From Candidatus Omnitrophota bacterium (GTDB lineage Bacteria > Omnitrophota > Omnitrophia > Omnitrophales > JACROU01): a DNA stretch of 64,000 nt. Below the pieces are notes generated by a model, which made no database searches, had not been told where the DNA came from, and saw only the letters and a list, made by a program, of their open reading frames with translations. A program made the translations under genes and the position numbers. Below are positions 14,440 to 62,726 of the stretch, piece after piece. Where the stretch lies: the NCBI GenBank assembly GCA_029261035.1, contig JAJDCD010000004.1, forward strand, positions 132,765-196,764, written 5' to 3'. How positions within the stretch are numbered: position 1 is the stretch's first letter; each line of letters starts with the position of its first letter.

Positions 14440-14542
14440 ATTTAAAGTAATCTAAAACCTTCTTACAACGTGTCATTCCCGAAACCTTTTGTCGGGAATC
14501 CATGATATATCAAACATAACTATACGTTTTACCAAAACCTAG

Positions 14543-14575
14543 ATCCCCGACACAAACATTCGGGGATGACAAACT
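14543..14575 (+). repeat. REP-like hairpin ATCCCCGA-N9-TCGGGGATGACAAACT
   Basis: Family member in the pheA-scpB spacer. A second imperfect hairpin lies at 14472-14505. Confidence 0.55.
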
Positions 14576-15518: not shown

Positions 15519-16373
15519 TTAAGCAATAGTATTCAGTTGTTTTCTTACGAGTTTGATTTCCCCAAACATTCCGGCCTGCGCCACACGGACATGTTTCTGT
15601 TTCACAATTTCTAATAACGCTAAAAATGTTGCAATAATTTCATTCTTTGATGCCGGCCCTCTAAATAGCTCCGAGAATAAGACTTCTTTCTTCTCGATGA
15701 TCAAATCTTTAATGTAATCCATTTTTTGTTCTATCGAAACAACTTCTTCAAACACCTCATGTTGAACGTCCTCTTTAGAATGCGTTTTTAACACATGGTG
15801 GAACGCTTGAATCAAATCGTAAAGATCCGCATCAAACTCTTCTTCCACCTCTGGAGCTTTATAATCTTCTCCAAAATAATAATCGCTAATCTGACGCGTG
15901 AAAATTTGATTTCTCTCCGCTTCACGAATTCCAAGTTCTTTAGCCGCTTCCTTAAACGCTTGGTATTCTAAAAGCTTTCTAACCAGCTCTGCTCTTGGAT
16001 CCAAACCGTCCTCATCATCATCATCTTGGTCATCCTCAGGCAACAACATTTTTGATTTAATATATAAAAGCGTTGAGGCCATCACCAAAAAATCTCCAGC
16101 AATATCCAAATCCATCTGACGCATCTGATCAATATAATCCAAATACTGCTTTGTAATCTCGATCATGGGAATATCATAGATATTAATCTCATTTTTTTTA
16201 ATTAAATCTAACAACAAATCTAAAGGGCCTTCATAAGCCGTCAACTTTACAGACAAGGAACTCTCTTCTTTTCTACCAAACAGAGGGGTGTCCTTTTGAT
16301 TCAACGACTCTTCCGTTTGCTGTAATTGTTGTTGTTCAGTCCCATCTTTTTCGTTTTGATTTTCTTCAATCAT
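15519..16373 (-). CDS. scpA: segregation and condensation protein A
   Basis: YEGPLDLLLDLIKKNEINIYDIPMIEIT signature of ScpA. Confidence 0.8.
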   Translation of the reverse strand: MIEENQNEKDGTEQQQLQQTEESLNQKDTPLFGRKEESSLSVKLTAYEGPLDLLLDLIKKNEINIYDIPMIEITKQYLDYIDQMRQMDLDIAGDFLVMASTLLYIKSKMLLPEDDQDDDDEDGLDPRAELVRKLLEYQAFKEAAKELGIREAERNQIFTRQISDYYFGEDYKAPEVEEEFDADLYDLIQAFHHVLKTHSKEDVQHEVFEEVVSIEQKMDYIKDLIIEKKEVLFSELFRGPASKNEIIATFLALLEIVKQKHVRVAQAGMFGEIKLVRKQLNTIA

Positions 16374-16390
16374 TTTTTATCCTCGGCTTA

Positions 16391-16423
16391 TTAGCGTAGA
16401 GCGTTTAGCTTGGAGCGTATAGG
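16391..16423 (-). promoter_or_regulatory. heptad-repeat element (CTNNNCG)x4 plus CTAATAA upstream of scpA
   Basis: Gene-sense CTATACG CTCCAAG CTAAACG CTCTACG CTAATAAGCCGAGGATAAAAAATG. Confidence 0.5.
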
Positions 16424-16452
16424 TTTCCTTTGTCTTTTTTAGGCAAAAGATC

Positions 16453-16483
16453 TATCCGCTCCACGCTATGCGCTAAACGCTAA
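16453..16483 (+). repeat. second heptad-repeat copy in inverted orientation, abutting the trpS stop
   Basis: CTATCCG CTCCACG CTATGCG CTAAACG CTAAT. With 16391-16423 it forms a roughly 31-bp imperfect inverted repeat around a 30-nt loop. Confidence 0.5.
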
Positions 16484-17458
16484 TTATATCCCTACTTTTT
16501 CTTTCGCTTCTTGAAGCGTCGCACTCGCAATTACTCTTGCTCGCTTCGCCCCTTCTTCTAAAATATCCGCTATTTTTCCTTTGTCCTTTTCCAACTCTTT
16601 TCTTTTTTCATAAACAGGCTCTAAGAATTTATTAAGCTCTTTCATTAAACTCTTTTTATCATCCACACAACCTAACTCAGCACTTCGACATCCTTGCTCA
16701 ATACTCGGGATTAAATCCGAATTAAAAATCTTTTGATAATAAAACACAGGACAAACTTCAGGATCCCCTGGGTCGTCTCTTCGTTTTCTCTGAGGGTCCG
16801 TCACCATACCCTTAATTTTCTTCTCTACTTCTTCTGGAGAATCAGACATGTAAATACAATTATTGTACGACTTACTCATCTTACGACCATCTGTACCAGG
16901 CAATTTTTTAACCTGGGTCAACATGGCTTGAGGTTCAGGAAATACCTCCCCGTACAAATGATTAAAACGTCTCGCAATTTCTCTCGTCAATTCCAGGTGA
17001 GGCAACTGATCTTCTCCCACCGGAACAAAATCCGCTTTGTATAACAAAATATCCGCGGCCTGTAACACAGGGTACCCTAAGAACCCATGCGTGTGTAGAT
17101 CCTTACCCTTTAACTCCTGAATCTGATCTTTATAAGTTGGATTTCTCTCCAACCAAGAAAGTGGCGTCATCATCGATAACAACAAAGCTAATTCAGCATG
17201 TTCTTTAACTTGGCTTTGAACAAAAATAGTACACTTCTCAGGATCCAAGCCCCCTGCAAGATAATCTAAAACGACTTCTATCACATTATTTCTAATTTCA
17301 GAATGAGATTCGTACTCCGTCGTTAAGGCATGCCAATCGGCAATCATAAAAAAAGCATCTTCTTCTTGAATCTTTTTCCAATTATCCAAAGCTCCTAGAA
17401 AATTACCTAAGTGCAACTTGCCTGTTGGCCTCATCCCACTTAAAACTCTTTTTTTCAT
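16484..17458 (-). CDS. trpS: tryptophan--tRNA ligase
   Basis: KMSKS motif and TrpS-like length. The track ORF extends to 17491, but the MKKRVLSGMRPTG Met at 17458 is the likelier start. Confidence 0.85.
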   Translation of the reverse strand: MKKRVLSGMRPTGKLHLGNFLGALDNWKKIQEEDAFFMIADWHALTTEYESHSEIRNNVIEVVLDYLAGGLDPEKCTIFVQSQVKEHAELALLLSMMTPLSWLERNPTYKDQIQELKGKDLHTHGFLGYPVLQAADILLYKADFVPVGEDQLPHLELTREIARRFNHLYGEVFPEPQAMLTQVKKLPGTDGRKMSKSYNNCIYMSDSPEEVEKKIKGMVTDPQRKRRDDPGDPEVCPVFYYQKIFNSDLIPSIEQGCRSAELGCVDDKKSLMKELNKFLEPVYEKRKELEKDKGKIADILEEGAKRARVIASATLQEAKEKVGI

Positions 17459-17530
17459 ATTATCCGATCCCAATAGACTCAATATAAACACCTAAATAGG
17501 TGCCCTAAACCTAATAAACAAACGGCATAT

Positions 17531-17565
17531 TATAGCATAAAGAGCGTGTAGCGTAGAGCGGATAG
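17531..17565 (-). promoter_or_regulatory. heptad-repeat element upstream of trpS
   Basis: Gene-sense CTATCCG CTCTACG CTACACG CTCTTTATG CTATA. Confidence 0.45.
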
Positions 17566-17734
17566 TACGTAATTAGTCCGTTTTATGTCATTATTGGGGA
17601 AGCAAGAATCCGATACTCCAAAAGAATTAAGGCTAGAAACAATAGGCAAGGCCTGTATCCCCAACTTTAGAGGGGATGAAAATTTTGAATATAAAGACAG
17701 AAGACCCTATCCTCTATGTGCTAAACGCTCTACA

Positions 17735-18565
17735 CTAGAAGAAGGAAATAATGAGTGTGATAAAACCCACAAAAAAGCAGTAATAGGAAAATAAATAGAA
17801 ATTGCCTCGGATAACGATTCTTGAAAGGATCTTAATCGCCACCAAACCAACAACAAAAGCCACCAAAGCACCAATTATATAAAGAAAAATCTTATCTGTA
17901 GCAAATTGAGAAATGTCTTTTAATTTAAAGACAAAGGCACCTAAAATTGTAGGAATAGAAAGAATAAAGGAAAAGCGAAATGCCAAATCACGACTCAAAC
18001 CCAGCTTCAACCCTGTCGCAATCGTCATTCCAGAACGAGAAACACCGGGCAAAATTGAAATAGCTTGAGCAAGCCCAACAATAAAAGCATCTTTCATTGA
18101 AAGGTCGTTCAACGATTTTTCATTGTACGGAGAAACGCGAGTCAATAAAATAACCCCTCCTGTAAAGATAAGAGAAAGCCCCACAACCAAAAGAGAGTTA
18201 AAAGACTGCTCTATTTGATCCGAAAAATAAACTCCGACACAACCTGCTGGAATCACAGCTATCAAAGCATAAATGAATAATTTTAAATTTTGATTCCGAT
18301 ACATAATATCTTTTACTCGGTTTCCATCAAAAAGTTCACCAAAAGCACTAAGGCTATCGAAAAGGATGTTCAGAAGATCTCTATGGAAATAAACAATAAC
18401 AGACATTAAAGTTCCCATATGAAGCATAATATTCAATTCCAACTGAGCTCCTTCAAAACCCAAAATTTTCTCCATAATCACAAGATGCCCTGAACTAGAA
18501 ATAGGGAGAAACTCCGTAAATGCTTGAACAACAGCTAAAAATATAATTTGAATTAATTCGGTCAT
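17735..18565 (-). CDS. uppP: undecaprenyl-diphosphatase
   Basis: BacA/UppP N-terminal signature FTEFLPISSSGHL and eight predicted TM segments. Confidence 0.85.
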   Translation of the reverse strand: MTELIQIIFLAVVQAFTEFLPISSSGHLVIMEKILGFEGAQLELNIMLHMGTLMSVIVYFHRDLLNILFDSLSAFGELFDGNRVKDIMYRNQNLKLFIYALIAVIPAGCVGVYFSDQIEQSFNSLLVVGLSLIFTGGVILLTRVSPYNEKSLNDLSMKDAFIVGLAQAISILPGVSRSGMTIATGLKLGLSRDLAFRFSFILSIPTILGAFVFKLKDISQFATDKIFLYIIGALVAFVVGLVAIKILSRIVIRGNFYLFSYYCFFVGFITLIISFF

Positions 18566-19662: not shown

Positions 19663-19698
19663 CTATTAGCGCATAGCGTTCAGCGGATAGCGGATAGG
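19663..19698 (-). promoter_or_regulatory. heptad-repeat element upstream of manC
   Basis: Gene-sense CCTATCCG CTATCCG CTGAACG CTATGCG CTAATAGACAAAGGACAAAAAATG. Confidence 0.5.
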
Positions 19699-19726
19699 CT
19701 CATTTGCCTTTTTCCCCGACCCAATT

Positions 19727-19811
19727 GTCATCCCCGACTTGATCGGGGATCTAGTGTCTTTTGCATTCAACTATCCAATGGATCCCGGATCATGTCCGGG
19801 ATGACAAACTA
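19727..19811. repeat. two adjacent REP-like hairpins in opposite orientation
   Basis: GTCATCCCCGACTTGATCGGGGATCTAG (19727-19754) and GGATCCCGGATCATGTCCGGGATGACAAACT (19781-19811). Confidence 0.6.
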
Positions 19812-21181: not shown

Positions 21182-21295
21182 AATATACTTCCATTGTTTA
21201 TAGCCATTCGCTTTTGGCTATTGGTTAATTCTAAATTATGTCTGAACCGCCATACGACTGACTGCGCTAAAGCTTCGTCAGTTAAAAAAGCTGTT

Positions 21296-26940: not shown

Positions 26941-27639
26941 TCACTTTAAAAATTGTTTAGCATTATTCATTAACAAATTAGTTCCATATACATTCTTATT
27001 CACTACTTTATAGACAACATCTCTCTCTCGAACTTTGGACTTTGTAATAATTCCTATCTCTTCTCCTTTACTCGCCTGCTCCACATCTTTGCGATTAATC
27101 TGCATCGATTTAATCTTTTGCTTAAAATCGCTTGTTACACCTTTAATATGGATTTGATCTCCAATTCTCAAGGTTCCTTTTTCAATCTTAATTATACCCG
27201 CTTTTACGCCAGAAAAGTAATGGGTAATCACTCCAACTTGCTCTCCTAACCCTGAAGAAGCCTTGCCTTTCACTCTACGAAGGGCCTTTTTAACAGGCTT
27301 CTTCATTTTTTTCTTCTTCACCGCTTTTTTCTTTATTTTCTTTTTTAAAGGCTTCTTTTTTAGAACTTTCTTAACTTTCTTCTTAGCGACTTTCTTTTTT
27401 GCCTTTTTTTTCTTAACCGCTTTTTTCTTAACTACTTTCTTTTTTTTGGCTTTTTTCTTAACAACCTTCTTTTTAACTTTTTTCTTCGTCACTTTCTTTT
27501 TAGAAACCTTTTTCTTAACAGGCCTCTTCTTCTTAACGGTTCGCTTTTTTACGACCTTTTTCTTCTTACGTCTTTTAGGCTTCTCATCCTCACCCATCAA
27601 AACCTTAAATGCCCTAACCACTCGCTTAAATATTGGCAT
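26941..27639 (-). CDS. lysine-rich histone H1-like protein with C-terminal EF-Tu-domain-2-like beta-barrel
   Basis: Residues 20-115 are almost pure K/V/A/R repeats (nucleotides about 27285-27590 are AAG/AAA low complexity). The C-terminal 100 aa (GVITHYFSGVKAGIIKIEKGTLRIGDQIHIKG) looks like a small beta-barrel. Confidence 0.6.
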   Translation of the reverse strand: MPIFKRVVRAFKVLMGEDEKPKRRKKKKVVKKRTVKKKRPVKKKVSKKKVTKKKVKKKVVKKKAKKKKVVKKKAVKKKKAKKKVAKKKVKKVLKKKPLKKKIKKKAVKKKKMKKPVKKALRRVKGKASSGLGEQVGVITHYFSGVKAGIIKIEKGTLRIGDQIHIKGVTSDFKQKIKSMQINRKDVEQASKGEEIGIITKSKVRERDVVYKVVNKNVYGTNLLMNNAKQFLK

Positions 27640-33719: not shown

Positions 33720-33725
33720 TTGTCA

Positions 33726-33759
33726 CTATAGCGCACAGCGTTTAGCGTAGAGCGTATAG
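33726..33759 (-). promoter_or_regulatory. heptad-repeat element (CTNNNCG)x4 plus CTATAG immediately upstream of nadK
   Basis: Gene-sense reading CTATACG CTCTACG CTAAACG CTGTGCG CTATAGT, ending 6 nt before the ATG. Confidence 0.5.
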
Positions 33760-39375: not shown

Positions 39376-39476
39376 AAGACTCCTCTTGTCCTGCTTATAG
39401 TTTATAGCTCTTGGCTTTTGGTTGAATTTATTATCAAAAAATGCTTTTACCAAAAGCTAAGAGCCAAAAACCATCC

Positions 39477-40106: not shown

Positions 40107-40213
40107 GTCATTGCGAGGCATTAGAAAGTCGAGCCGTGGCAATCTCAGATTAAGGGAAGAAAGGTCCGTCTCAAAACCAAGAGATTGCCGCAGCTCCTTT
40201 GTGGAAGCCTCTC
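40107..40213. repeat. nested inverted-repeat element (GTCATTGCGAGG...GCCGTGGCAAT / ATTGCCGC...CCTCTCAATGAC)
   Basis: Same architecture and end sequences as the element at 42987-43093. Confidence 0.6.
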
Positions 40214-40304: not shown

Positions 40305-42539
40305 ATGAGACATCTCCTTTTTGTTCTATTATTTTTAGTTATTTCTACCCCTTTTGCTGAGGCCAGCATTATCGGAGCATTAGAGAACGTAACTCGACAA
40401 ATTGAGTCCGGAGGTTCATCTAGTAACAACACCTCTTCATCCTCCAGCTCAAGACCTTCTAGCACCACAAATACCAACCCCTCACAATATGAAACTCAAT
40501 ACCCAACACTCATGCCTTCAGACGGAAGCAGTGGCTCTGTTATGTCTATCGATCCAACAACAGGCACAGTGACTCAAAGCTCTTTAAATCCTGATGGCTC
40601 CAGAACGGTAACCGAAACAAACGCGGATGGAAATACAACAGAAGAAGTAATCCCTGAAGATCAACCGGATAGTGCCTCTTCTCTAGATTCCGAAACCGGA
40701 ATCACAACTACTTCCGTTGAAAACCCAGATGGGTCTCGTACTGTTATTGAAACGGATGCCGAAGGCAACATCGTAAGTTCAACACGTGTCCCATCAACGC
40801 AAACAACATCTGCCTCTGCTACAGATCCTGACACAGGCATCACAACAACATCTACTCGAAACGCAGACGGATCTAGAACCGTCACACAAACAGACGCGGA
40901 TGGAAATGTTTTAAATACGCGGAATGAACCCGCTCGTGGTTCAGGAAGATCTTCTGCTTCTTCTACAAATACAGATACTGGCGTTACAACAACTTCAACT
41001 CGCAATGCCGATGGCTCTAGCACAGTTACAGAAACAGACTCTCAAGGTAATACCCTCAGTTCGCGCAACGAGCCCGCCCGAGGATCACGCCCAGACTCTG
41101 CATCCGCCACCGACACCCGTACAGGAAATACAACAACATCCACTCGAAACGCAGATGGCTCTCGCACCGTCACTCAAACAGACTCTCAAGGAAATACTCT
41201 TTCAACACGAACAGAACCTAATAGAAATTCAACACCTTCTTTTGCATCTTCAACCGATTCTAATACAGGAATTACAACAACTTCGACTCAAAATGCCGAT
41301 GGCTCTCGTACGGTCAATCAAACAGACTCTAATGGCAACCTTCTCAATTCTCGAAGAGAACCTGCTCGTGGCTCGAGTCCAAGCTCTGCTTCTTCAACGA
41401 ACACCGATACAGGAGTCACTACAACATCGACTCGCAATGCAAACGGCTCCCGTACGGTTACTGAAACGGACGAGCAAGGAAATACATTAAATACTAGGAA
41501 CGAGCCTGCTCGTGGTTCCCGTCCAACATCTGCATCTGCCACAGATACAAATACCGGAATCACAACAACGTCCACTCGCAATACAGACGGTTCGCGTACC
41601 GTTACCGAAACAGACGAGCAAGGAAATACCTTAAATACAAGAAACGAGCCTGCTCGTGGTTCCCGCCCTACTTCAGCTTCAGCAACGGATACGAATACAG
41701 GCATTACAACAACGTCCACACGCAATACGGACGGATCTCGTACCGTTACCGAAACAGACGAGCAAGGAAATACCTTAAGCACCCGAAACGAGCCTGCTCG
41801 TGGAACAACCCCCTCTTCTGCTTCTGCGACAAACCCAGACACAGGAATTACAACAACATCAACACGTAACCCGGATGGTTCTAGAACTGTGACTCAAACG
41901 GATAAAGATGGAAATGTGTTAAATACACGCAACGAACCCGCCAGAGGAACAGGAACATCCTCCGCCTCTTCAACAAATACCGATACAGGTGTCACAACGA
42001 CATCCACTCAAAACGCAGATGGGTCTCGTACGGTTACAGAAACAGATAAAGACGAAAATGTTCTAGGCTCTCGCAACGAACCCGTATCAGGTACAGCCCC
42101 CTCTTCGGTAACATCAACAGATATGCTGTCAGGAGCACAAACAACCTCTACTATGAATCCCGATAAAAGCAGAACCCTTATCTTAAAAGACAAAGATGGA
42201 AAAGTAATTTCGAAAGAAACTACATATGGGTCCACAGGAATCGTTTCTAAAGTAACTTATAATAAAGATGGAACAGCTTTATTTATTCAAAAGGATGGAA
42301 GAGGTAGAACACTGATGGAAAAATCCTTCGCAAAAGTGCTGCAACCTAAATTTAGAAATCAAGCCATTGATATTCTATTTAACGTATCTAGACCGCAGGT
42401 GTACTCCTTACCTGGTTTTGCCAGCGCTCCTGGTTATCCAGCAACTCCAGACAAAACGGTTATCAATAATTCTTTAGGAGAAAAGATACAAGAGTACGAA
42501 GGCCCTCCTCGCGATTATGATGGGTCCAATTACCAGTAG
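40305..42539 (+). CDS. secreted Ser/Thr-rich tandem-repeat surface protein (putative adhesin-like)
   Basis: Signal peptide MRHLLFVLLFLVISTPFAEA. About 11 tandem 48-aa units (SASATDTNTGITTTSTRNxDGSRTVTETDxQGNTLxTRNEPARGSRPx), then a non-repetitive C-terminal domain. Confidence 0.75.
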   Translation: MRHLLFVLLFLVISTPFAEASIIGALENVTRQIESGGSSSNNTSSSSSSRPSSTTNTNPSQYETQYPTLMPSDGSSGSVMSIDPTTGTVTQSSLNPDGSRTVTETNADGNTTEEVIPEDQPDSASSLDSETGITTTSVENPDGSRTVIETDAEGNIVSSTRVPSTQTTSASATDPDTGITTTSTRNADGSRTVTQTDADGNVLNTRNEPARGSGRSSASSTNTDTGVTTTSTRNADGSSTVTETDSQGNTLSSRNEPARGSRPDSASATDTRTGNTTTSTRNADGSRTVTQTDSQGNTLSTRTEPNRNSTPSFASSTDSNTGITTTSTQNADGSRTVNQTDSNGNLLNSRREPARGSSPSSASSTNTDTGVTTTSTRNANGSRTVTETDEQGNTLNTRNEPARGSRPTSASATDTNTGITTTSTRNTDGSRTVTETDEQGNTLNTRNEPARGSRPTSASATDTNTGITTTSTRNTDGSRTVTETDEQGNTLSTRNEPARGTTPSSASATNPDTGITTTSTRNPDGSRTVTQTDKDGNVLNTRNEPARGTGTSSASSTNTDTGVTTTSTQNADGSRTVTETDKDENVLGSRNEPVSGTAPSSVTSTDMLSGAQTTSTMNPDKSRTLILKDKDGKVISKETTYGSTGIVSKVTYNKDGTALFIQKDGRGRTLMEKSFAKVLQPKFRNQAIDILFNVSRPQVYSLPGFASAPGYPATPDKTVINNSLGEKIQEYEGPPRDYDGSNYQ
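40550..42140 (+). repeat. intragenic 144-bp tandem repeats (about 11 copies, near-identical in the centre)
   Basis: The three consecutive central units are nearly identical at the protein level and at the nucleotide level. Antisense ORFs in this span are frame artefacts of the repeats. Confidence 0.8.
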
Positions 42540-42544
42540 ATTAG

Positions 42545-43095
42545 AAGAAGATTTTGTCATCTCCTCCTTGATCCATTTGTCATCCCCGAATGCTTTAATC
42601 GGGGATCCAGTCAGACAAAACGATTAATTTAGAAATTAAATAAAGCACAAACACATGGATCCCCGCCTTCGCGGGGATGACAGAAAAGCGCGGGAAGATA
42701 CAAGAATAGGACGGTCCACCTCGAAATTATGATGGAAAATTTTATGGGTAGATTTACGCTTGTCATTATTTAATTCAAAGACCCTAGATTCCCGCCTACG
42801 CGGGAATGACAAACACTTTTATTCATTCTTGTCATCCTGAACTAGCGCCTGCCCGCCGTCTTGCCCGCCACGAAAAACGGCGGGTCCGCCAGCTTATTAG
42901 GAGGATTGGGCGGGAAGGATCTCAGACTCAGAGATTCTTCGTCGCAAAGCTCCTCAGAATGACAGCTGTGTAGAAATTTAAATCCGTCATTGCGAGGCTA
43001 AAACAAAAAGAGCCGTGGCAATTTCAGGTTTTTACTTCTTATTCATCCCGAGATTGCCACGGCTCAATATGTCGATACCTCGCAATGACAGTTTT
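42545..43095. repeat. cluster of REP-like palindromic elements (BIME-like) in the 580-bp intergenic region
   Basis: At least six hairpins with GTCATC/GATGAC-type ends: 42578-42610, 42656-42682, 42786-42812, 42830-42895, 42921-42965 and 42987-43093. Confidence 0.7.
42697..42751 (+). repeat. degenerate duplicate of the 3' end of the repeat-protein gene
   Basis: GATACAAGAATAGGACGGTCCACCTCGAAATTATGATGG..TAG closely matches the gene terminus GATACAAGAGTACGAAGGCCCTCCTCGCGATTATGATGG...TAG. Confidence 0.55.
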
Positions 43096-44250: not shown

Positions 44251-44278
44251 AAATTCAAAGACATTCACTTGTCTGCCT

Positions 44279-44304
44279 GGATTCCCGCCTCCGCGGGAAT
44301 GACC
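44279..44304 (+). repeat. REP-like hairpin (GGATTCCCGCCTCCGCGGGAATGACC)
   Basis: Same family as 42786-42812 and 58234-58260, including the shared CCTGGATTCCC lead-in. Confidence 0.6.
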
Positions 44305-44332
44305 GTATCACCAAAAGCCAATAGCCAAAAGC

Positions 44333-44386
44333 TAACGTCTGGCCCGCCAGACAAAGCCAATGACACGCTAGTGCTTTAGCGTAGTC
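44333..44386 (-). repeat. conserved tRNA 3'-trailer element, copy 2
   Basis: GTCTGGCCCGCCAGAC hairpin plus TTTAGCGTAGTCTGG immediately 3' of tRNA-Arg, homologous to 21296-21362. Confidence 0.5.
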
Positions 44387-45032: not shown

Positions 45033-45196
45033 GGCAGGAGGCTCCTATGAAAATAAGAAACCAGAGAAAAGAAACAAGAAACCGAGAAACTTACTTGTCT
45101 GGTTTCGTATACCCTGACTTCTCTTCCCGGTACTAATGCTTCATTATCAAATAAACTTGCAGTCTAAAAAGGGTCTATTAAAAACGAACCCTCTCG

Positions 45197-49002: not shown

Positions 49003-49062
49003 TTAATTCTTTCCTCCATTTATCCTTGTTAAATTCAAATTTCGTTTATTTTCTGTCATTCT

Positions 49063-49136
49063 GAGGAGCCTAGCGACGAAGAATCTCTTTGTCTAAGATC
49101 CTTCACTCCGTTCAGGATGACAAAAAACTAAAAACT
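49063..49136 (+). repeat. two-hairpin intergenic element (GTCATTCTGAGG..GAAGAATCT..AGATCCTTCACTSCGTTCAGGATGACA), copy A
   Basis: Near-identical architecture and stems to 59957-60033. The first hairpin also occurs in inverted orientation at 42921-42965. Confidence 0.65.
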
Positions 49137-54896: not shown

Positions 54897-55553
54897 ATGG
54901 GAAATACAATAAAAATCAAAAAACATCCTACAAAAAACAATCCTAATTATTTTTTAATAGATTCAGACTTTTTTGTTAATAGATACCTATCTAAACATTT
55001 GTCATATTTAAACCTAAACTCGGGAAATAGTGGTGAAGAATCAATAGAAAAAAGTGCTTTATGGTGGAATGAAATTAATTCTCAGCTAAAAAATGAAATA
55101 GCTTATCTATTTATTCCAAATGTTTGCATTTCAGAGACATTTAAAGTCCTAGCTAAAAGACAATACGACAAAGATGAAAAAATCATTAAGAAATATAAAT
55201 ATTACAAGGAGTTAATCGATGAAATTTCAGAAGATCTTCATGTCAACCCTAAACTTCCCGAAACACAGAAGAAAAAACAAAGAATTCATGACCTAGAAAC
55301 AAACCGTGATATTGTTATTGGAACAGATAGATTTTTAAGGTTAATAATGAAAAATGGTTATAAAACAATATCAACATTTGATTTAATGTTGCTAGTTCAT
55401 GGAAAGTTGCTTTTGAAACATTACAACTTTAATAAGAGAAATCTCTTTATTATTACAGGAGATAAAACGCTATACAATGCCTCTAAACCATTTCCTGATA
55501 TTCCACGAGTATGCTGTCCTAACATAAACTCATTTGATAGTTCATTCGATTAA
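54897..55553 (+). CDS. PIN-domain nuclease-like protein
   Basis: Acidic quartet in canonical PIN order: FLIDSDFF, ISETF, HDLETNRD, TFDLML and FIITGDKT (T-x-D). About 30% GC. Confidence 0.5.
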   Translation: MGNTIKIKKHPTKNNPNYFLIDSDFFVNRYLSKHLSYLNLNSGNSGEESIEKSALWWNEINSQLKNEIAYLFIPNVCISETFKVLAKRQYDKDEKIIKKYKYYKELIDEISEDLHVNPKLPETQKKKQRIHDLETNRDIVIGTDRFLRLIMKNGYKTISTFDLMLLVHGKLLLKHYNFNKRNLFIITGDKTLYNASKPFPDIPRVCCPNINSFDSSFD

Positions 55554-55643
55554 ACCCAACGCATTCAATTTTAAAGGTTTAATACCAAAATCGAATTCTA
55601 GATAGATTGGATACGTAGTTTACGAGCGTTAAAACAATAACTG

Positions 55644-58058
55644 CTAAAATGGTAAAGAAGATTTATTTTTAAGTAAATAATATTTTGCATGTGCAATCAA
55701 GAAAACCTTGTTTCTAAAGAAAAAGAACCTTTTTTCTCCTAACTTCTTTTTCAAAATCTTAACATCATCGAATGGTTTATCGGCCTTTTTATCATAACCT
55801 AGCATGTAACTCTTATTAAACAAAGTCTCTATTAGCTTCTCTTTTTTTAACTGATTAAACTTAAACTCTCTAAGAATCTTGATAAATTTCCTATACTCAA
55901 TCTGCTTACCATGATACTCTTGCAACCTTGTAAGAATTTCGGATATTTCTGGAAACTCAGCCCTTGTTTCTGCTATTAAATTATTATTCAAAAACTCTGT
56001 ATAACTTGTAATAGCATATTTTAAGTCCTTTCTATCTACTTTGTGATTGCCATTATTGATAGCAGACTCGAATAACTTTGCAACAAAATATATTAAGTCT
56101 CTTGGACGCTTCGTAATAATCTCCTGTATTATTTCAAAAGGGTGCCTTTTCTCTTTAAAGTTAAAAAATTCCCTCCATGCTTTTTTTTCTAACAATTCAC
56201 TGTCGGACTCATCCAATTTTAATATATGCGCAAATCTATTCTCAATTAACTTTTTTAATAGGCCCGGATAATCTTCCCAGTTTATATAGTGAGCCATAAG
56301 AACTAACTTATCAGGCTCTGCTACCTCGTTGCGAATATAGTTGAATATATCTTCTCTTAAAAAAATAATTTGTTTAACCTCAACCTGAGAATCTTTACTA
56401 AGTAATTCTTTTTGTATTTTATTTTCTATCTCTAATAAAGTACTCATCATCTCTGATTGTATTTTAAGATCATTTTTGGGATCCCAAGTCTTATCTAAAT
56501 TGTCTGCTAAAACAATCACTTTATAGTATTTTTTTCTAATTGATGTAAAGTAATTACGCAAACATGCAGTTAATGGCGAAAGGTATTCTTTAAAAAGAGT
56601 CTCCATGACCTCGGGACCGGAAATCTCCCTTGAATTTGTTCTTCTAACATTAACTTCTCGAACAACTCCAAAAAAGTTAAGCTTAGTGAACTCTTCATTT
56701 TTTTCTACAAAATTTATTATAGCTTCCTCCTCATCAGTCATTGTTACACTATTTTTTTCATCAAGTATACGCTCCACAATAGAAATAGCTAGTTTTGAAA
56801 AAATTACTAATTTCCACACAGCAACAAAAAAGCTTATTCTAGAAGAATCAAATAGTTTGGACAGCTGAATGTCATCAAGCAATTCATCAGACTCAGGTTT
56901 CAAACTAACAATATAATTATTTTTTTCTTCTGGCAAATCATCAGATAATTTGATGTAGATAGCAGATTTTCCACTACCTTTTCGCCCAACAACAATCGAC
57001 TTTTTATAATTTAATGCTTTTTGATATGAAGCAGTATTAACAAAATAACTTAAGAGTTCCCGACTCTCATTCTCTGCTATGTCACACCCAATACCCAACT
57101 CGATTAAATTTGTTTCATGTTCTATGATTTCACTCTTCTCTTGCGTTGTATCAAAAGCTAGTTGTTTGTCCAACCAAGGACTAATAAATTCCTTTATTTC
57201 ATCAGAAATTTCATAAGTAACCAAAATATCATGGTAATCTAAAGGTGGTTTGAACTTTGCAGGTGCAAGCAACAAAACATCACATCCCCATCCACAAGCA
57301 ACTCCAGCATAAAAAGCATTTTTTGCGTTTTCCATAAATGAATTTTGATAATTCTCTCCTAAAAGATGAATAAGAACCACTCTTGCCTTTAAAAGGTTCT
57401 GAAAATACCAAGTTAATGTTTGATATTTAATTTCAGATAAATCATCTGCAACAAGAGATAGTGACTTATTGTCTTTATAATCAATAATATGGTCCGTAAG
57501 CTCTATTGAATCTTGAGTTGCAAGTTTACTTTGAATATAAAATATGTCTGTACTTTTAGAGGTTAGATTTTTAAAATTCACAAACTTATTTAAAAGATTA
57601 TTTTCAAAGCTTTTTTGCTGAAGGGCTTTCTGGATACAATATGAATTTTTAAAAGGTATATAACGAATATCTTTTAGAATAAATTCTTTGTAAATCTTAT
57701 TGGGAAACCCAAGCTCATTATTAACACTAATATTTTCATTAATTAAGATTAGAATATATTTATTTTTTGCTATAGCATATCCAAGCTCAAACAAAACATT
57801 GTGATTAAAATACGTCAGATCACACACAAAAACTTCACTTCCGTCAATTGCTGAAAGGATTTCCTTACTAATTGTAGTTGTTTGTTTATATTCCTCCCAA
57901 CTTCTAGCTTTATAAGTTTTTTGGTGTTGATTAAAGGCTTCAATCGCCTTTTTAATTGATTCAACATTGTTATCAGCTAACCCATTAGAACGTCCTTGAT
58001 AAGCAAAAAATATTTTTTTTTGTGGTAATTCAGAATTTTTTGATACCATTATTACCAA
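55644..58058 (-). CDS. tandem NDT/TIR-like Rossmannoid domains fused to a P-loop NTPase (candidate defence/conflict protein)
   Basis: Residues about 15-110 KIFFAYQG...EVFVCDLTYFNHNVLFELGYAIAKNKYILIL (nucleoside 2-deoxyribosyltransferase-like FE(L/I)GYA motif). Second degenerate copy ...NAFYAGVACGWGCDVLLLAPAKF. Walker A VVGRKGSGKSAIYI and candidate Walker B YKVIVLADNLD. About 400 aa helical C-terminus. About 29% GC. Confidence 0.55.
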   Translation of the reverse strand: MVIMVSKNSELPQKKIFFAYQGRSNGLADNNVESIKKAIEAFNQHQKTYKARSWEEYKQTTTISKEILSAIDGSEVFVCDLTYFNHNVLFELGYAIAKNKYILILINENISVNNELGFPNKIYKEFILKDIRYIPFKNSYCIQKALQQKSFENNLLNKFVNFKNLTSKSTDIFYIQSKLATQDSIELTDHIIDYKDNKSLSLVADDLSEIKYQTLTWYFQNLLKARVVLIHLLGENYQNSFMENAKNAFYAGVACGWGCDVLLLAPAKFKPPLDYHDILVTYEISDEIKEFISPWLDKQLAFDTTQEKSEIIEHETNLIELGIGCDIAENESRELLSYFVNTASYQKALNYKKSIVVGRKGSGKSAIYIKLSDDLPEEKNNYIVSLKPESDELLDDIQLSKLFDSSRISFFVAVWKLVIFSKLAISIVERILDEKNSVTMTDEEEAIINFVEKNEEFTKLNFFGVVREVNVRRTNSREISGPEVMETLFKEYLSPLTACLRNYFTSIRKKYYKVIVLADNLDKTWDPKNDLKIQSEMMSTLLEIENKIQKELLSKDSQVEVKQIIFLREDIFNYIRNEVAEPDKLVLMAHYINWEDYPGLLKKLIENRFAHILKLDESDSELLEKKAWREFFNFKEKRHPFEIIQEIITKRPRDLIYFVAKLFESAINNGNHKVDRKDLKYAITSYTEFLNNNLIAETRAEFPEISEILTRLQEYHGKQIEYRKFIKILREFKFNQLKKEKLIETLFNKSYMLGYDKKADKPFDDVKILKKKLGEKRFFFFRNKVFLIAHAKYYLLKNKSSLPF

Positions 58059-58233
58059 TCTCCATTAATAAATTATTTTTACAGTCCTTCAGTTGTTGCA
58101 GCCTCTGGGCTCAGTTGTTGAATGTTAAAAAAACATTCACTAAACTTTTAACTTATAACTCTCTATTCCTTTTATATTCTTAGAAATAAATTTTGTCAAG
58201 GAATCAAGTTTTTCTGAGGGTATTTTCAAGCCT

Positions 58234-58260
58234 GGATTCCCACCTTCACGGGAATGACAA
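58234..58260 (+). repeat. REP-like hairpin (GGATTCCCACCTTCACGGGAATGACAA)
   Basis: Family member with the CCTGGATTCCC lead-in. Confidence 0.55.
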
Positions 58261-59956: not shown

Positions 59957-60033
59957 CATTCTGAGGGATTTGGCAAATGCGCCGAAGAATCTTTTTGTCA
60001 GAGATCCTTCACTGCGTTCAGGATGACAGGGGG
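59957..60033 (+). repeat. two-hairpin intergenic element, copy B
   Basis: GTCATTCTGAGG...GAAGAATCT...AGATCCTTCACTGCGTTCAGGATGACA, matching copy A at 49063-49136. Confidence 0.65.
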
Positions 60034-60040
60034 TTATATG

Positions 60041-60220
60041 CACCAGTCTTTGGTCTGCTGGGTTTTCAGTATTAGCAATTTTAAAGATTTTGGGAATATA
60101 TGTACCCGTCTTGGGTCTGCTGGATTTCGAGTATTAGCAATTTTAAAACTTTTGGGAGTATACGCACCCGTCTGGGTCTGCTTGGATGTGTTGTATTAAC
60201 AATTTTAAAGATGTTGATCC
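60041..60220 (+). repeat. three tandem direct repeats of about 62 bp
   Basis: Units at 60041-60104, 60105-60166 and 60167-60220 share CCCGTCTTGGGTCTGCTGG..GTATTAGCAATTTTAAA..TTTTGGGAGTATA at about 80% identity. There are no unique spacers between them. Confidence 0.8.
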
Positions 60221-62590: not shown

Positions 62591-62605
62591 GGGACTTCCT
62601 TTCGG

Positions 62606-62726
62606 TGACTGTCATTGGCCTGCTTTTAGCAGAGCACAGTGACTGTCACCCAAAACTCATTTTAATCACGGTTCAATAATAGTGACAGTCACTTTGCTCT
62701 GCGGTACGCAGGCAAGTGACAGTCAC
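62606..62726. promoter_or_regulatory. array of four GTGAC(A/T)GTCAC palindromes (putative operator sites / large hairpin)
   Basis: Copies at 62606, 62639, 62682 and 62716. Copies 2 and 3 sit inside a longer inverted repeat (GCAGAGCACAGTGACTGTCAC / GTGACAGTCACTTTGCTCTGC). The array lies between the pepA stop and the start of the membrane-protein gene. Confidence 0.55.

Follow-up and report, generated by a model that had tools for sequence, protein, structure and literature searches.

The subject of this analysis is a set of short intergenic repeats in a 64,000-nucleotide stretch of the genome of a Candidatus Omnitrophota bacterium (contig JAJDCD010000004.1, positions 132,765 to 196,764; hereafter the window). 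Six arrays of about 35 nt are present, each with the general form (CTNNNCG)x4 + CTAWTAG, and they are arranged as two inverted pairs plus two solo arms. These six arms belong to a family of heptad arms of about 35 nt that recurs across phyla, and such arms constitute the inverted termini of cassettes carrying a PF05635 gene. The reading that we favour, with a probability of roughly 0.55, is that the window arms are gene-less orphan or miniature cassette arms, whose pairing within the polycistronic transcript gives a stem of the RNase III type with the insert looped out.

Among the long simple repeats of bacteria, those with a heptanucleotide unit are the most frequent class. Where they come from and what they do has lacked an explanation since the description of the cyanobacterial short tandemly repeated repetitive (STRR) sequences. 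Thousands of PF05635/TIGR02436 'four helix bundle proteins' exist, for which, to our knowledge, no function is known outside the Avd proteins of diversity-generating retroelements (DGRs). Connecting the two provides each with a definite partner open to testing, and the connection is drawn because the arms bracket the gene, because an arm encodes the last codons of the gene, and because the heptad type and the protein subfamily covary. It also explains the presence of the same CT...CG arrays in Omnitrophota, Atribacterota and Planctomycetota, as well as the breaks in genome assemblies at these sites. For the purposes of genome annotation, such arrays should not be taken as promoters or regulons.

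Heptad arms at PF05635 genes

Clustering of 831 open reading frames (ORFs) from array-bearing loci yielded, beside response regulators and ABC ATPases, an unexpected seven-member family of proteins of approximately 117 amino acids. The family corresponds to PF05635 ('23S rRNA-intervening sequence protein') and TIGR02436 ('four helix bundle protein'), and the DGR protein Avd was matched weakly. All seven genes lie between inverted heptad arrays: purines predominate on the sense strand of the upstream array, and the complementary array follows the gene. Bracketing arms of the CGCT type are found in Atribacterota, Pirellulales and Omnitrophota, and arms built from other heptads are found in Peregrinibacteria, another Omnitrophica genome, Holophagae and Nitrospira. 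The units of one Nitrospira array shift gradually from CTACTCC through CTACCCG to CTATACG.

The CGCT-type protein has more than 5369 metagenome homologues at E<=1e-20. Three of these were viewed in their genomic context, where a pabB-like gene and a class-IV aminotransferase gene flank two of them and the third is located inside an acs operon. In all three cases, (AGCGNNN)4 is present upstream of the gene and CCTATACGCTAAACGCT...CTA is present downstream. Moreover, the last codons of the CGCT-type gene, which specify P-I-R-stop (CCT ATA CGC TAA), are supplied by the 3' arm itself, as its two initial heptads. The 3' arms of the cassettes and the arms of the window have CTAT[AC]CG CT...CG ... 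CTA in common and are thus of the same arm type. Among the matches listed in the cross-genome scan described below, gene-less arrays carry CTAAACG at the second unit in 23% of cases compared to 8-12% elsewhere, an excess that is expected if many gene-less arrays derive from the coding 3' arm.

An independent set of genes was drawn from plasmids (PLSDB; cultured cyanobacteria and Riemerella) and comprises eight genes annotated as 'four helix bundle' or 'S23 ribosomal protein'. Inverted, lineage-specific heptads bracket six of the eight, and the Nostoc, Anabaena and Calothrix plasmids are among those with bracketing arrays. The heptad is CAGGAGT in Nostoc punctiforme, GGGAAGA in Geminocystis and GGTTCAA in Riemerella. 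On a Picosynechococcus plasmid, arms of GGAGATA flank a cassette inserted between cas10/cmr2 and cmr3, and on a plasmid of Anabaena sp. 90, arms of ACAGGTG flank a cassette inserted between cas6 and cas4, with the same orientation as the cas genes in both instances. Only a downstream arm was found on the plasmid of Nostoc 7120.

A strict bracket test, which demands period-7 arrays on both sides of a gene and reverse complementarity of their consensus heptads at no fewer than 6 of 7 positions, was passed by 9 of 17 PF05635 genes compared to 3 of 691 control genes from the same array-rich loci. The RNA duplex energy of gene flanks was rejected as a statistic in favour of this consensus-heptad test, as it proved uninformative, with GC-rich controls giving equally low values. 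Among strains whose cassette ORFs differ at 0-1 of 351 nt, there are at least three alleles of the 5' arm, which differ by heptads or by whole blocks, and the 5' arms of the long alleles hold TATAAT between array blocks. Literature searches on heptamer repeats, Omnitrophota, STRR sequences and the intervening sequence (IVS) protein returned no CT...CG arrays and no link between repeats and PF05635, and a search of the literature with the heptad sequence itself yielded nothing but chance matches to primers.

The arms of the window and their counterparts in other genomes

Five of the six arrays had been recognized in an initial annotation of this DNA, each within 1-3 nt of the positions given here, and the sixth (arm F) had been missed. 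Arm A (CTATACG CTCCAAG CTAAACG CTCTACG CTAATAA; positions 16388-16422 in heptad register, minus strand) and arm B (CTATCCG CTCCACG CTATGCG CTAAACG CTAATTA; 16452-16486, plus strand, antisense to the genes) form a divergent (<- ->), gene-less element of 99 nt (16388-16486) that fills the spacer between trpS and scpA. Arm C (CTATCCG CTCTACG CTACACG CTCTTTATG CTATAAT; 17529-17565, minus strand) includes one 9-nt unit and is paired with the degenerate arm F (CTATCCT CTATGTG CTAAACG CTCTACA CTAGAAG; 17707-17741, plus strand), which was recovered by a mismatch-tolerant scan. This second inverted pair (17529-17741) has an interior of 141 nt. Arms D (CTATCCG CTATCCG CTGAACG CTATGCG CTAATAG; 19663-19697) and E (CTATACG CTCTACG CTAAACG CTGTGCG CTATAGT; 33725-33759) are solo arms on the minus strand. 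The fifth unit preserves CTA alone, as is evident from its five forms in arms A to E (CTAATAA, CTAATTA, CTATAAT, CTAATAG and CTATAGT).

Three consecutive CTNNNCG units with no more than one mismatch occur 11 times in the window, compared to 0.06 occurrences expected from shuffled sequences. A profile built from the six arms recovers exactly those six (E values of 2e-9 to 2.5e-13) and nothing else with E<1. The likeness among the arms extends about 18 nt to the 5' side of the heptads, as AAAGACAAAGGAAn, and in arm A this conserved flank runs on to position 16441. Tandem Repeats Finder calls periods of 7 and 14 at the window arrays, which are thus tandem, head-to-tail, intergenic heptamers in the manner of long simple-sequence repeats (LSSRs) and STRR sequences. 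Weak period-7 arrays with other units (CCAAAAG, AAACAAG and TTGGC/TTAGC-type) are also present in the window at 44310-44341, 45051-45082, 21207-21237 and 39393-39423.

The genes adjoining the arms were assigned by Pfam as pgm, manC, uppP (bacA), trpS, scpA and scpB, with dxs and nadK elsewhere, and all are on the minus strand. The distances from arm to start codon are as the initial annotation gave them: 14 nt from arm A to scpA (ATG at 16373), 70 nt from arm C to trpS (17458), 14 nt from arm D to manC (19648) and 5 nt from arm E to nadK (33719). Its description of every copy as lying in gene sense upstream of a gene holds for these four arms but fails for arms B and F, which are antisense and are located at the trpS and uppP stop codons. 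Specifically, the trpS stop codon (TAA on the minus strand) consists of the last three bases of arm B, and the uppP stop codon (17735-17737) coincides with the CTA of the last unit of arm F. Arm C ends in the extended -10-like sequence TGCTATAAT, and in arm E the final TATAGT lies 5 nt ahead of the ATG.

The facing arms A and B fold into a long imperfect hairpin directly after the trpS stop codon, as had been proposed, with a minimum free energy (MFE) of -46.5 kcal/mol for the RNA (z = -6.2). This hairpin could serve as an RNA processing structure. Arms C and F likewise pair with each other in the MFE structure, and both pairs represent terminal inverted repeats able to form a stem of about 28 bp; arms D and E are solo. 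No PF05635 coding trace was detectable in the C/F interior. A search of positions 14000-36000 against Rfam at E<=1 returned two tRNAs only, with no family matching the arrays and no rRNA, and all six arms sit between protein-coding genes rather than at the helix 25/45 insertion sites of 23S rRNA. A Logan contig (SRR15505516), from a separate assembly of this strain, matches window positions 16434-18160 with 100% identity and stops precisely at the midpoint of the A/B palindrome, indicating that these elements break short-read assemblies.

Three relatives whose TrpS proteins are 76-83% identical to that of the window retain the gene order manC-uppP-...-trpS-scpA-scpB-pheA..., and they provided the opportunity to examine the conservation of the arrays. 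CT...CG arrays are absent from all three syntenic relatives in the 21 kb searched in each. The trpS-scpA spacer is 110 nt long in the window and 0-32 nt long in the relatives. The lack of arrays in the relatives and their short spacers indicate that the window arrays are lineage-specific insertions and not conserved regulatory sites. The window arms are recent, gene-less insertions that follow no regulon logic. Heptad arrays of types other than CGCT are carried by the relatives of the window, such as four copies of AGGACTC in one of them.

A scan with the pattern CTATMCGCTNNNCGCTNNNCGCT of one genome per GTDB species revealed at least 120 loci, which constitute a sample and not a census. These loci are distributed among Omnitrophota, Atribacterota, Planctomycetota, Elusimicrobiota, Lentisphaerota, Syntrophorhabdaceae, Nitrospirota, groups of the candidate phyla radiation (CPR) and others. 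The matches listed contain 182 arrays (about 60 beyond the seeded ones, in about 850 kb), and some GC-rich matches are plain runs of (CTATCCG)n or CTGTCCG. No such array was found in 131 kb of unrelated fabD loci. Among the matches listed, arrays most often have four units (101 of 179), the last unit is followed by C, T and A with frequencies of 96, 91 and 61%, and the middle triplets are drawn from a small set (ATA, ATC, AAA, CTA and GTC). In Atribacterota, a conserved motif, TATACTAACGACTA, lies about 8-12 nt after the CGCT arrays at eight loci and is absent in other phyla.

The geometry of these loci bears directly on the regulatory role that had been suggested for the arrays. With ORFs called crudely (longest ORFs, chosen greedily), the 3' end of the 141 intergenic arrays at the loci points toward a gene start in 62 cases and toward a gene end in 71, and the anticipated bias toward gene starts is not seen. 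Among the matches listed, solo arrays between co-directional genes are in the sense orientation 27 times and antisense 24 times, and of the arrays with an inverted partner, 44 are in a divergent (<- ->) arrangement and one is in a convergent arrangement. The CTA end of the array in these matches is a median of 24.5 nt from starts and 11 nt from stops, the 5' side lies about 105-120 nt from the next gene, and the stop codons of abutting genes are in register with the heptads in 25 of 69 cases. The outer ends of the element therefore face genes on both flanks. The antisense strand of an array offers TAG every 7 nt, such that all three frames are covered. The 57 proteins encoded downstream of sense arrays are mutually unrelated. 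The neutral counts for starts and ends and for orientation, together with these unrelated downstream genes, refute a regulon element specific to start codons.

Period-7 arrays predominate at the array-bearing loci, where 289 were counted compared to 0-29 for other periods (the 14-nt harmonic being excluded), and 147 period-7 arrays with other skeletons share the same loci. On one Omnitrophota contig, a cassette occurs together with several gene-less pairs whose interiors are related. Two genomes with FabD proteins that are 70% identical both retain a gene-less pair between fabH and fabD, with differences of one unit and of middle triplets, and this pair is absent at 64-66% FabD identity. Among metagenome fabD loci, only two closer relatives were found, and the repeat at their fabH-fabD junction is a different one. 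A phage origin was considered and set aside because the pattern has only 23 matches in IMG/VR, even though the matching contigs are rich in period-7 arrays, with 85 arrays of many sequences in 178 kb and 19 in 14 kb of one locus.

The cassette reading, its alternatives and known systems

A full cassette, read on one strand, consists of about four AGCGNNN units, a short leader, a gene for a 116-amino-acid PF05635/TIGR02436 protein, and about four CTNNNCG units followed by CTA. Both this cassette and what are read as its far commoner gene-less derivatives occupy intergenic spacers, including those within operons, where the outer (CTA) end of each arm adjoins the flanking stop or start codon. The arms in the window would have descended from PF05635 cassettes or spread together with them. 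The AGCG/CGCT skeleton and the restricted triplets render any two arms about 83% complementary, and presumably any left arm can pair with any right arm via AGCG/CGCU to create a stem of approximately 28-35 bp. By analogy with rRNA IVS elements, such a stem would loop out the insert and is a plausible substrate for RNase III, and its pairing would allow closely spaced genes to tolerate an insertion between them. For the host, the elements are probably neutral passengers with incidental effects, which may include altered mRNA processing or stability, the provision of a -10-like hexamer (as in arm C), and stop codons in all frames.

The rRNA elements on which this analogy rests, the 23S rRNA IVSs with an S23p ORF found in Coxiella and Leptospira, resemble the arrays in being selfish and patchily distributed. 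The Coxiella IVS, regarded as selfish, contains an S23p ORF, and its terminal inverted repeats pair into a 28-bp stem that RNase III cuts (PMC4990558). The loop of such an IVS holds the PF05635 ORF, for which decay and loss are known, and the S23p protein of Xanthomonas has been described as a homopentamer of four-helix bundles (PMC4990558). The structure in PDB entry 2GSC has five chains; a 28-bp stem corresponds to four heptads, and four full units plus the CTA unit make five. In contrast to the IVSs, the window elements reside in mRNA intergenic spacers, have no ORF, and possess arms of degenerate 7-nt units. We know of no description of heptad periodicity in IVS stems.

Several observations weigh against the cassette reading. 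A PF05635 gene or remnant is absent from the 64-kb window in any frame and from the interiors of the pairs, so that descent of the six arms from a cassette is inferred. In addition, complementarity at variable positions between the arms of a pair does not exceed that between unrelated arms (0.588 versus 0.614 +/- 0.027), and hence there is no pair-specific covariation that would reveal selection for the stem. The notion that the hairpin is selected as such was therefore dropped as unsupported, with the weight of this comparison being softened by the high complementarity that the skeleton already confers. The stem would also be interrupted by bubbles of 1-3 nt at every heptad, and RNase III may or may not cleave it. 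Neither a target-site duplication (22 pairs) nor a transposase or other mobilizing enzyme was found at the array-bearing loci. The crude ORF calls used for the cross-genome geometry must likewise be counted on this side, and retention of the fabH-fabD pair could reflect function rather than neutrality.

A doubtful but possible extension of the link is that degenerate heptad arrays, including those of the CGCT type and probably those of the cyanobacterial STRR type, are the cognate sites of homopentameric PF05635 proteins, with a horizontally spreading cassette and gene-less arrays that occupy gene boundaries in many phyla and act in trans on transcripts. In its most specific form, which we consider unlikely, each array would be a functional RNA, single-stranded DNA or double-stranded DNA site that accommodates one heptad per protomer. 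On this view, the gene-less arrays would constitute a network acting in trans on, for example, mRNA processing, mRNA protection or translation control at gene boundaries, and would not be relics. The modal four units plus the CTA unit give five heptads, matching the five chains of the homopentameric homologue 2GSC. Moreover, the skeleton is kept while middle triplets and unit number vary, even among strains with identical ORFs, and heptad sequence and protein subfamily change together between lineages. The persistence of the gene-less pair at an orthologous fabH-fabD site also fits such a function, and ring-shaped RNA binders that read triplets with a 5- or 7-nt periodicity are familiar from TRAP and HutP. 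Nevertheless, arrays are missing in close relatives, which implies that any function is dispensable, the window has no PF05635 gene that could supply the protein, and Avd is a reported non-specific binder of nucleic acids. The arrays may also be the iteron-like protein site envisaged in the initial annotation, although the candidate binder would be the four-helix-bundle protein of the cassette itself and not a transcription factor for four genes.

The remaining explanations each account for a portion of the data. Chi-like, ops-like, DnaA-box-like and attC-like readings of the heptads, and one based on DGR adenine mutagenesis, were considered as well and set aside as offering neither a fit nor a test. 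It is improbable that the arrays are ordinary simple-sequence repeats born in place by slippage, with no relation to a cassette and no function. Slippage is consistent with the dominance of period 7, the co-occurrence of many other heptads in the same loci, the existence of pure (CTATCCG)n runs and the heptad or block indels among alleles. However, the array length is sharply peaked at four units, the CT...CG skeleton is constant across phyla while the middle is variable, and both divergent pairing with outward polarity and tight linkage to PF05635 are consistent features. The six window arms also share unit order and the non-repeat flank of about 18 nt, which indicates the copying of a block of about 50 nt. 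The shared promoter or operator favoured by the initial annotation, which would produce short-leader mRNAs and join nadK, manC, scpA and trpS into a regulon, is quite improbable. Its attractions are the four sense arms that end 5-70 nt before start codons, the -10-like ends of arms C (TGCTATAAT) and E (TATAGT) and the TATAAT within long-allele 5' arms, but arms B and F point into gene ends, the arrays are neutral in placement and orientation with unrelated genes downstream, and syntenic relatives lack them. A search of the arrays for sigma-70 promoter (-35/-10 with 16-18 nt spacing) and terminator consensus sequences gave chance-level results, with TGCTATAAT of arm C as the sole exception.

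Mobility conferred by an unsampled transposase, encoded by a REP-associated tyrosine transposase (RAYT) gene or an insertion sequence (IS), would make the arrays akin to repetitive extragenic palindromic (REP) sequences and REPINs or to miniature inverted-repeat transposable elements (MITEs), and we regard this as very improbable. The arrays do resemble these elements, including the Neisseria Correia elements, in being intergenic, of about 100 nt and present in high copy as inverted doublets and decayed singlets, with a patchy phylogeny and assembly breaks at the palindrome; they are similarly co-transcribed and hairpin-forming, and can carry promoters or RNase III sites. In contrast to a palindromic REP unit, a single arm is a direct heptad array whose reverse complement is unmatched, and no consistent target-site duplication of the kind left by MITEs is apparent at 22 pairs. 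Among the 831 ORFs next to arrays, no RAYT gene and no recurrent transposase-like family was found, no transposase lies between distant arm pairs, and the only recurrent bracketed gene, carried by the full-length relative, is the four-helix-bundle gene PF05635. An equally low probability attaches to an operator read as contiguous 7-bp duplex repeats by a ribbon-helix-helix (RHH) protein, as with omega of pSM19035 and the ParG/parH tetramer boxes. Those systems likewise comprise contiguous units of 7-8 bp, each with a short box (here the 4-bp CGCT) and an AT-rich spacer (here 3 bp), in direct and inverted arrays that small oligomeric proteins read cooperatively. However, their sites are promoters or centromeres of plasmids and have an RHH gene linked to them, whereas the arrays described here are chromosomal and located at gene boundaries, at gene ends as often as at promoters, with PF05635 as the recurrent neighbour and no RHH gene found nearby.

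Among known tandem heptamers, the cyanobacterial STRR sequences (reportedly described by Mazel in 1990) and other heptanucleotide LSSRs, whose excess among long simple-sequence repeats was reportedly noted by Mrazek in 2007, are comparable in being degenerate, intergenic and present in many copies per genome. The window arrays differ from them in their CT...CG skeleton, defined length of 4-5 units and inverted-pair architecture. The general excess of heptanucleotides has been summarized previously (PMC4679880), in a study by MacGregor (2015) of TAACTGA direct repeats that adjoin start codons in Beggiatoaceae, Cyanobacteria and Bacteroidetes (PMC4679880). Like those repeats, the present arrays are heptamers located a few nucleotides before the starts of unrelated genes, with a spread across phyla that resembles horizontal gene transfer and no functional theme. 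The TAACTGA arrays have 2-6 copies of exact units and are mostly direct, with 169 direct sets and one indirect set (PMC4679880), whereas the units described here are degenerate, inverted pairs are common, and stop codons are abutted as often as start codons.

Other repeats and features of the window

The window also carries other small families of intergenic palindromic repeats that have the frame GTCAT-stem-loop-stem-ATC, such as GTCATCCCCGA..TCGGGGATC, GTCATTGCGAGG..CCGTGGCAATCTC and GTCATTCTGAGGAGC..GACGAAGAATCTC. Members are located at 14539-14573, 19725-19807, 40107-40151, 42576-42681, 42783-43095, 44276-44303, 49053-49122, 58231-58258 and 59978-60028. Similar GTCAT-like units directly adjoin CGCT heptad arrays in Pirellulales and in another metagenome-assembled genome (MAG). 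A 45-nt inverted repeat with 84% complementarity and a 32-nt spacer is found at 62605-62726, where it ends with the palindromes GTGACTGTCAC / GTGACAGTCAC.

Two coding repeats were noted. About 11 tandem repeats of 144 nt (48 amino acids) occupy positions 40586-42203 within a 744-amino-acid ORF (40305-42539), which has no Pfam match and is among the few plus-strand genes of the window. A lysine-rich repeat of the KKxVKK type with a 15-nt period (27286-27537) forms part of the N-terminal portion of a 232-amino-acid ORF on the minus strand (26941-27639), for which only a weak match to EF-Tu domain 2 was obtained. This lysine-rich ORF and the small palindromes had raised the idea of a chlamydial origin for the DNA, which was rejected because the homologues of its TrpS belong to Omnitrophota.

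With regard to composition, the block from 55000 to 58000 has a GC content of 0.29-0.31 compared to about 0.38 for the window and may represent acquired DNA; an 804-amino-acid ORF in this block gives only a weak match resembling nucleoside 2-deoxyribosyltransferase. A strong negative GC skew extends over the first 52 kb and breaks down from about that point, where we make no claim for a replication origin because no dnaA gene is nearby and the skew is heterogeneous. Finally, three tandem repeats of 62 nt that are 69-84% identical are present at 60030-60215, beside a palindrome of the GTCAT type.

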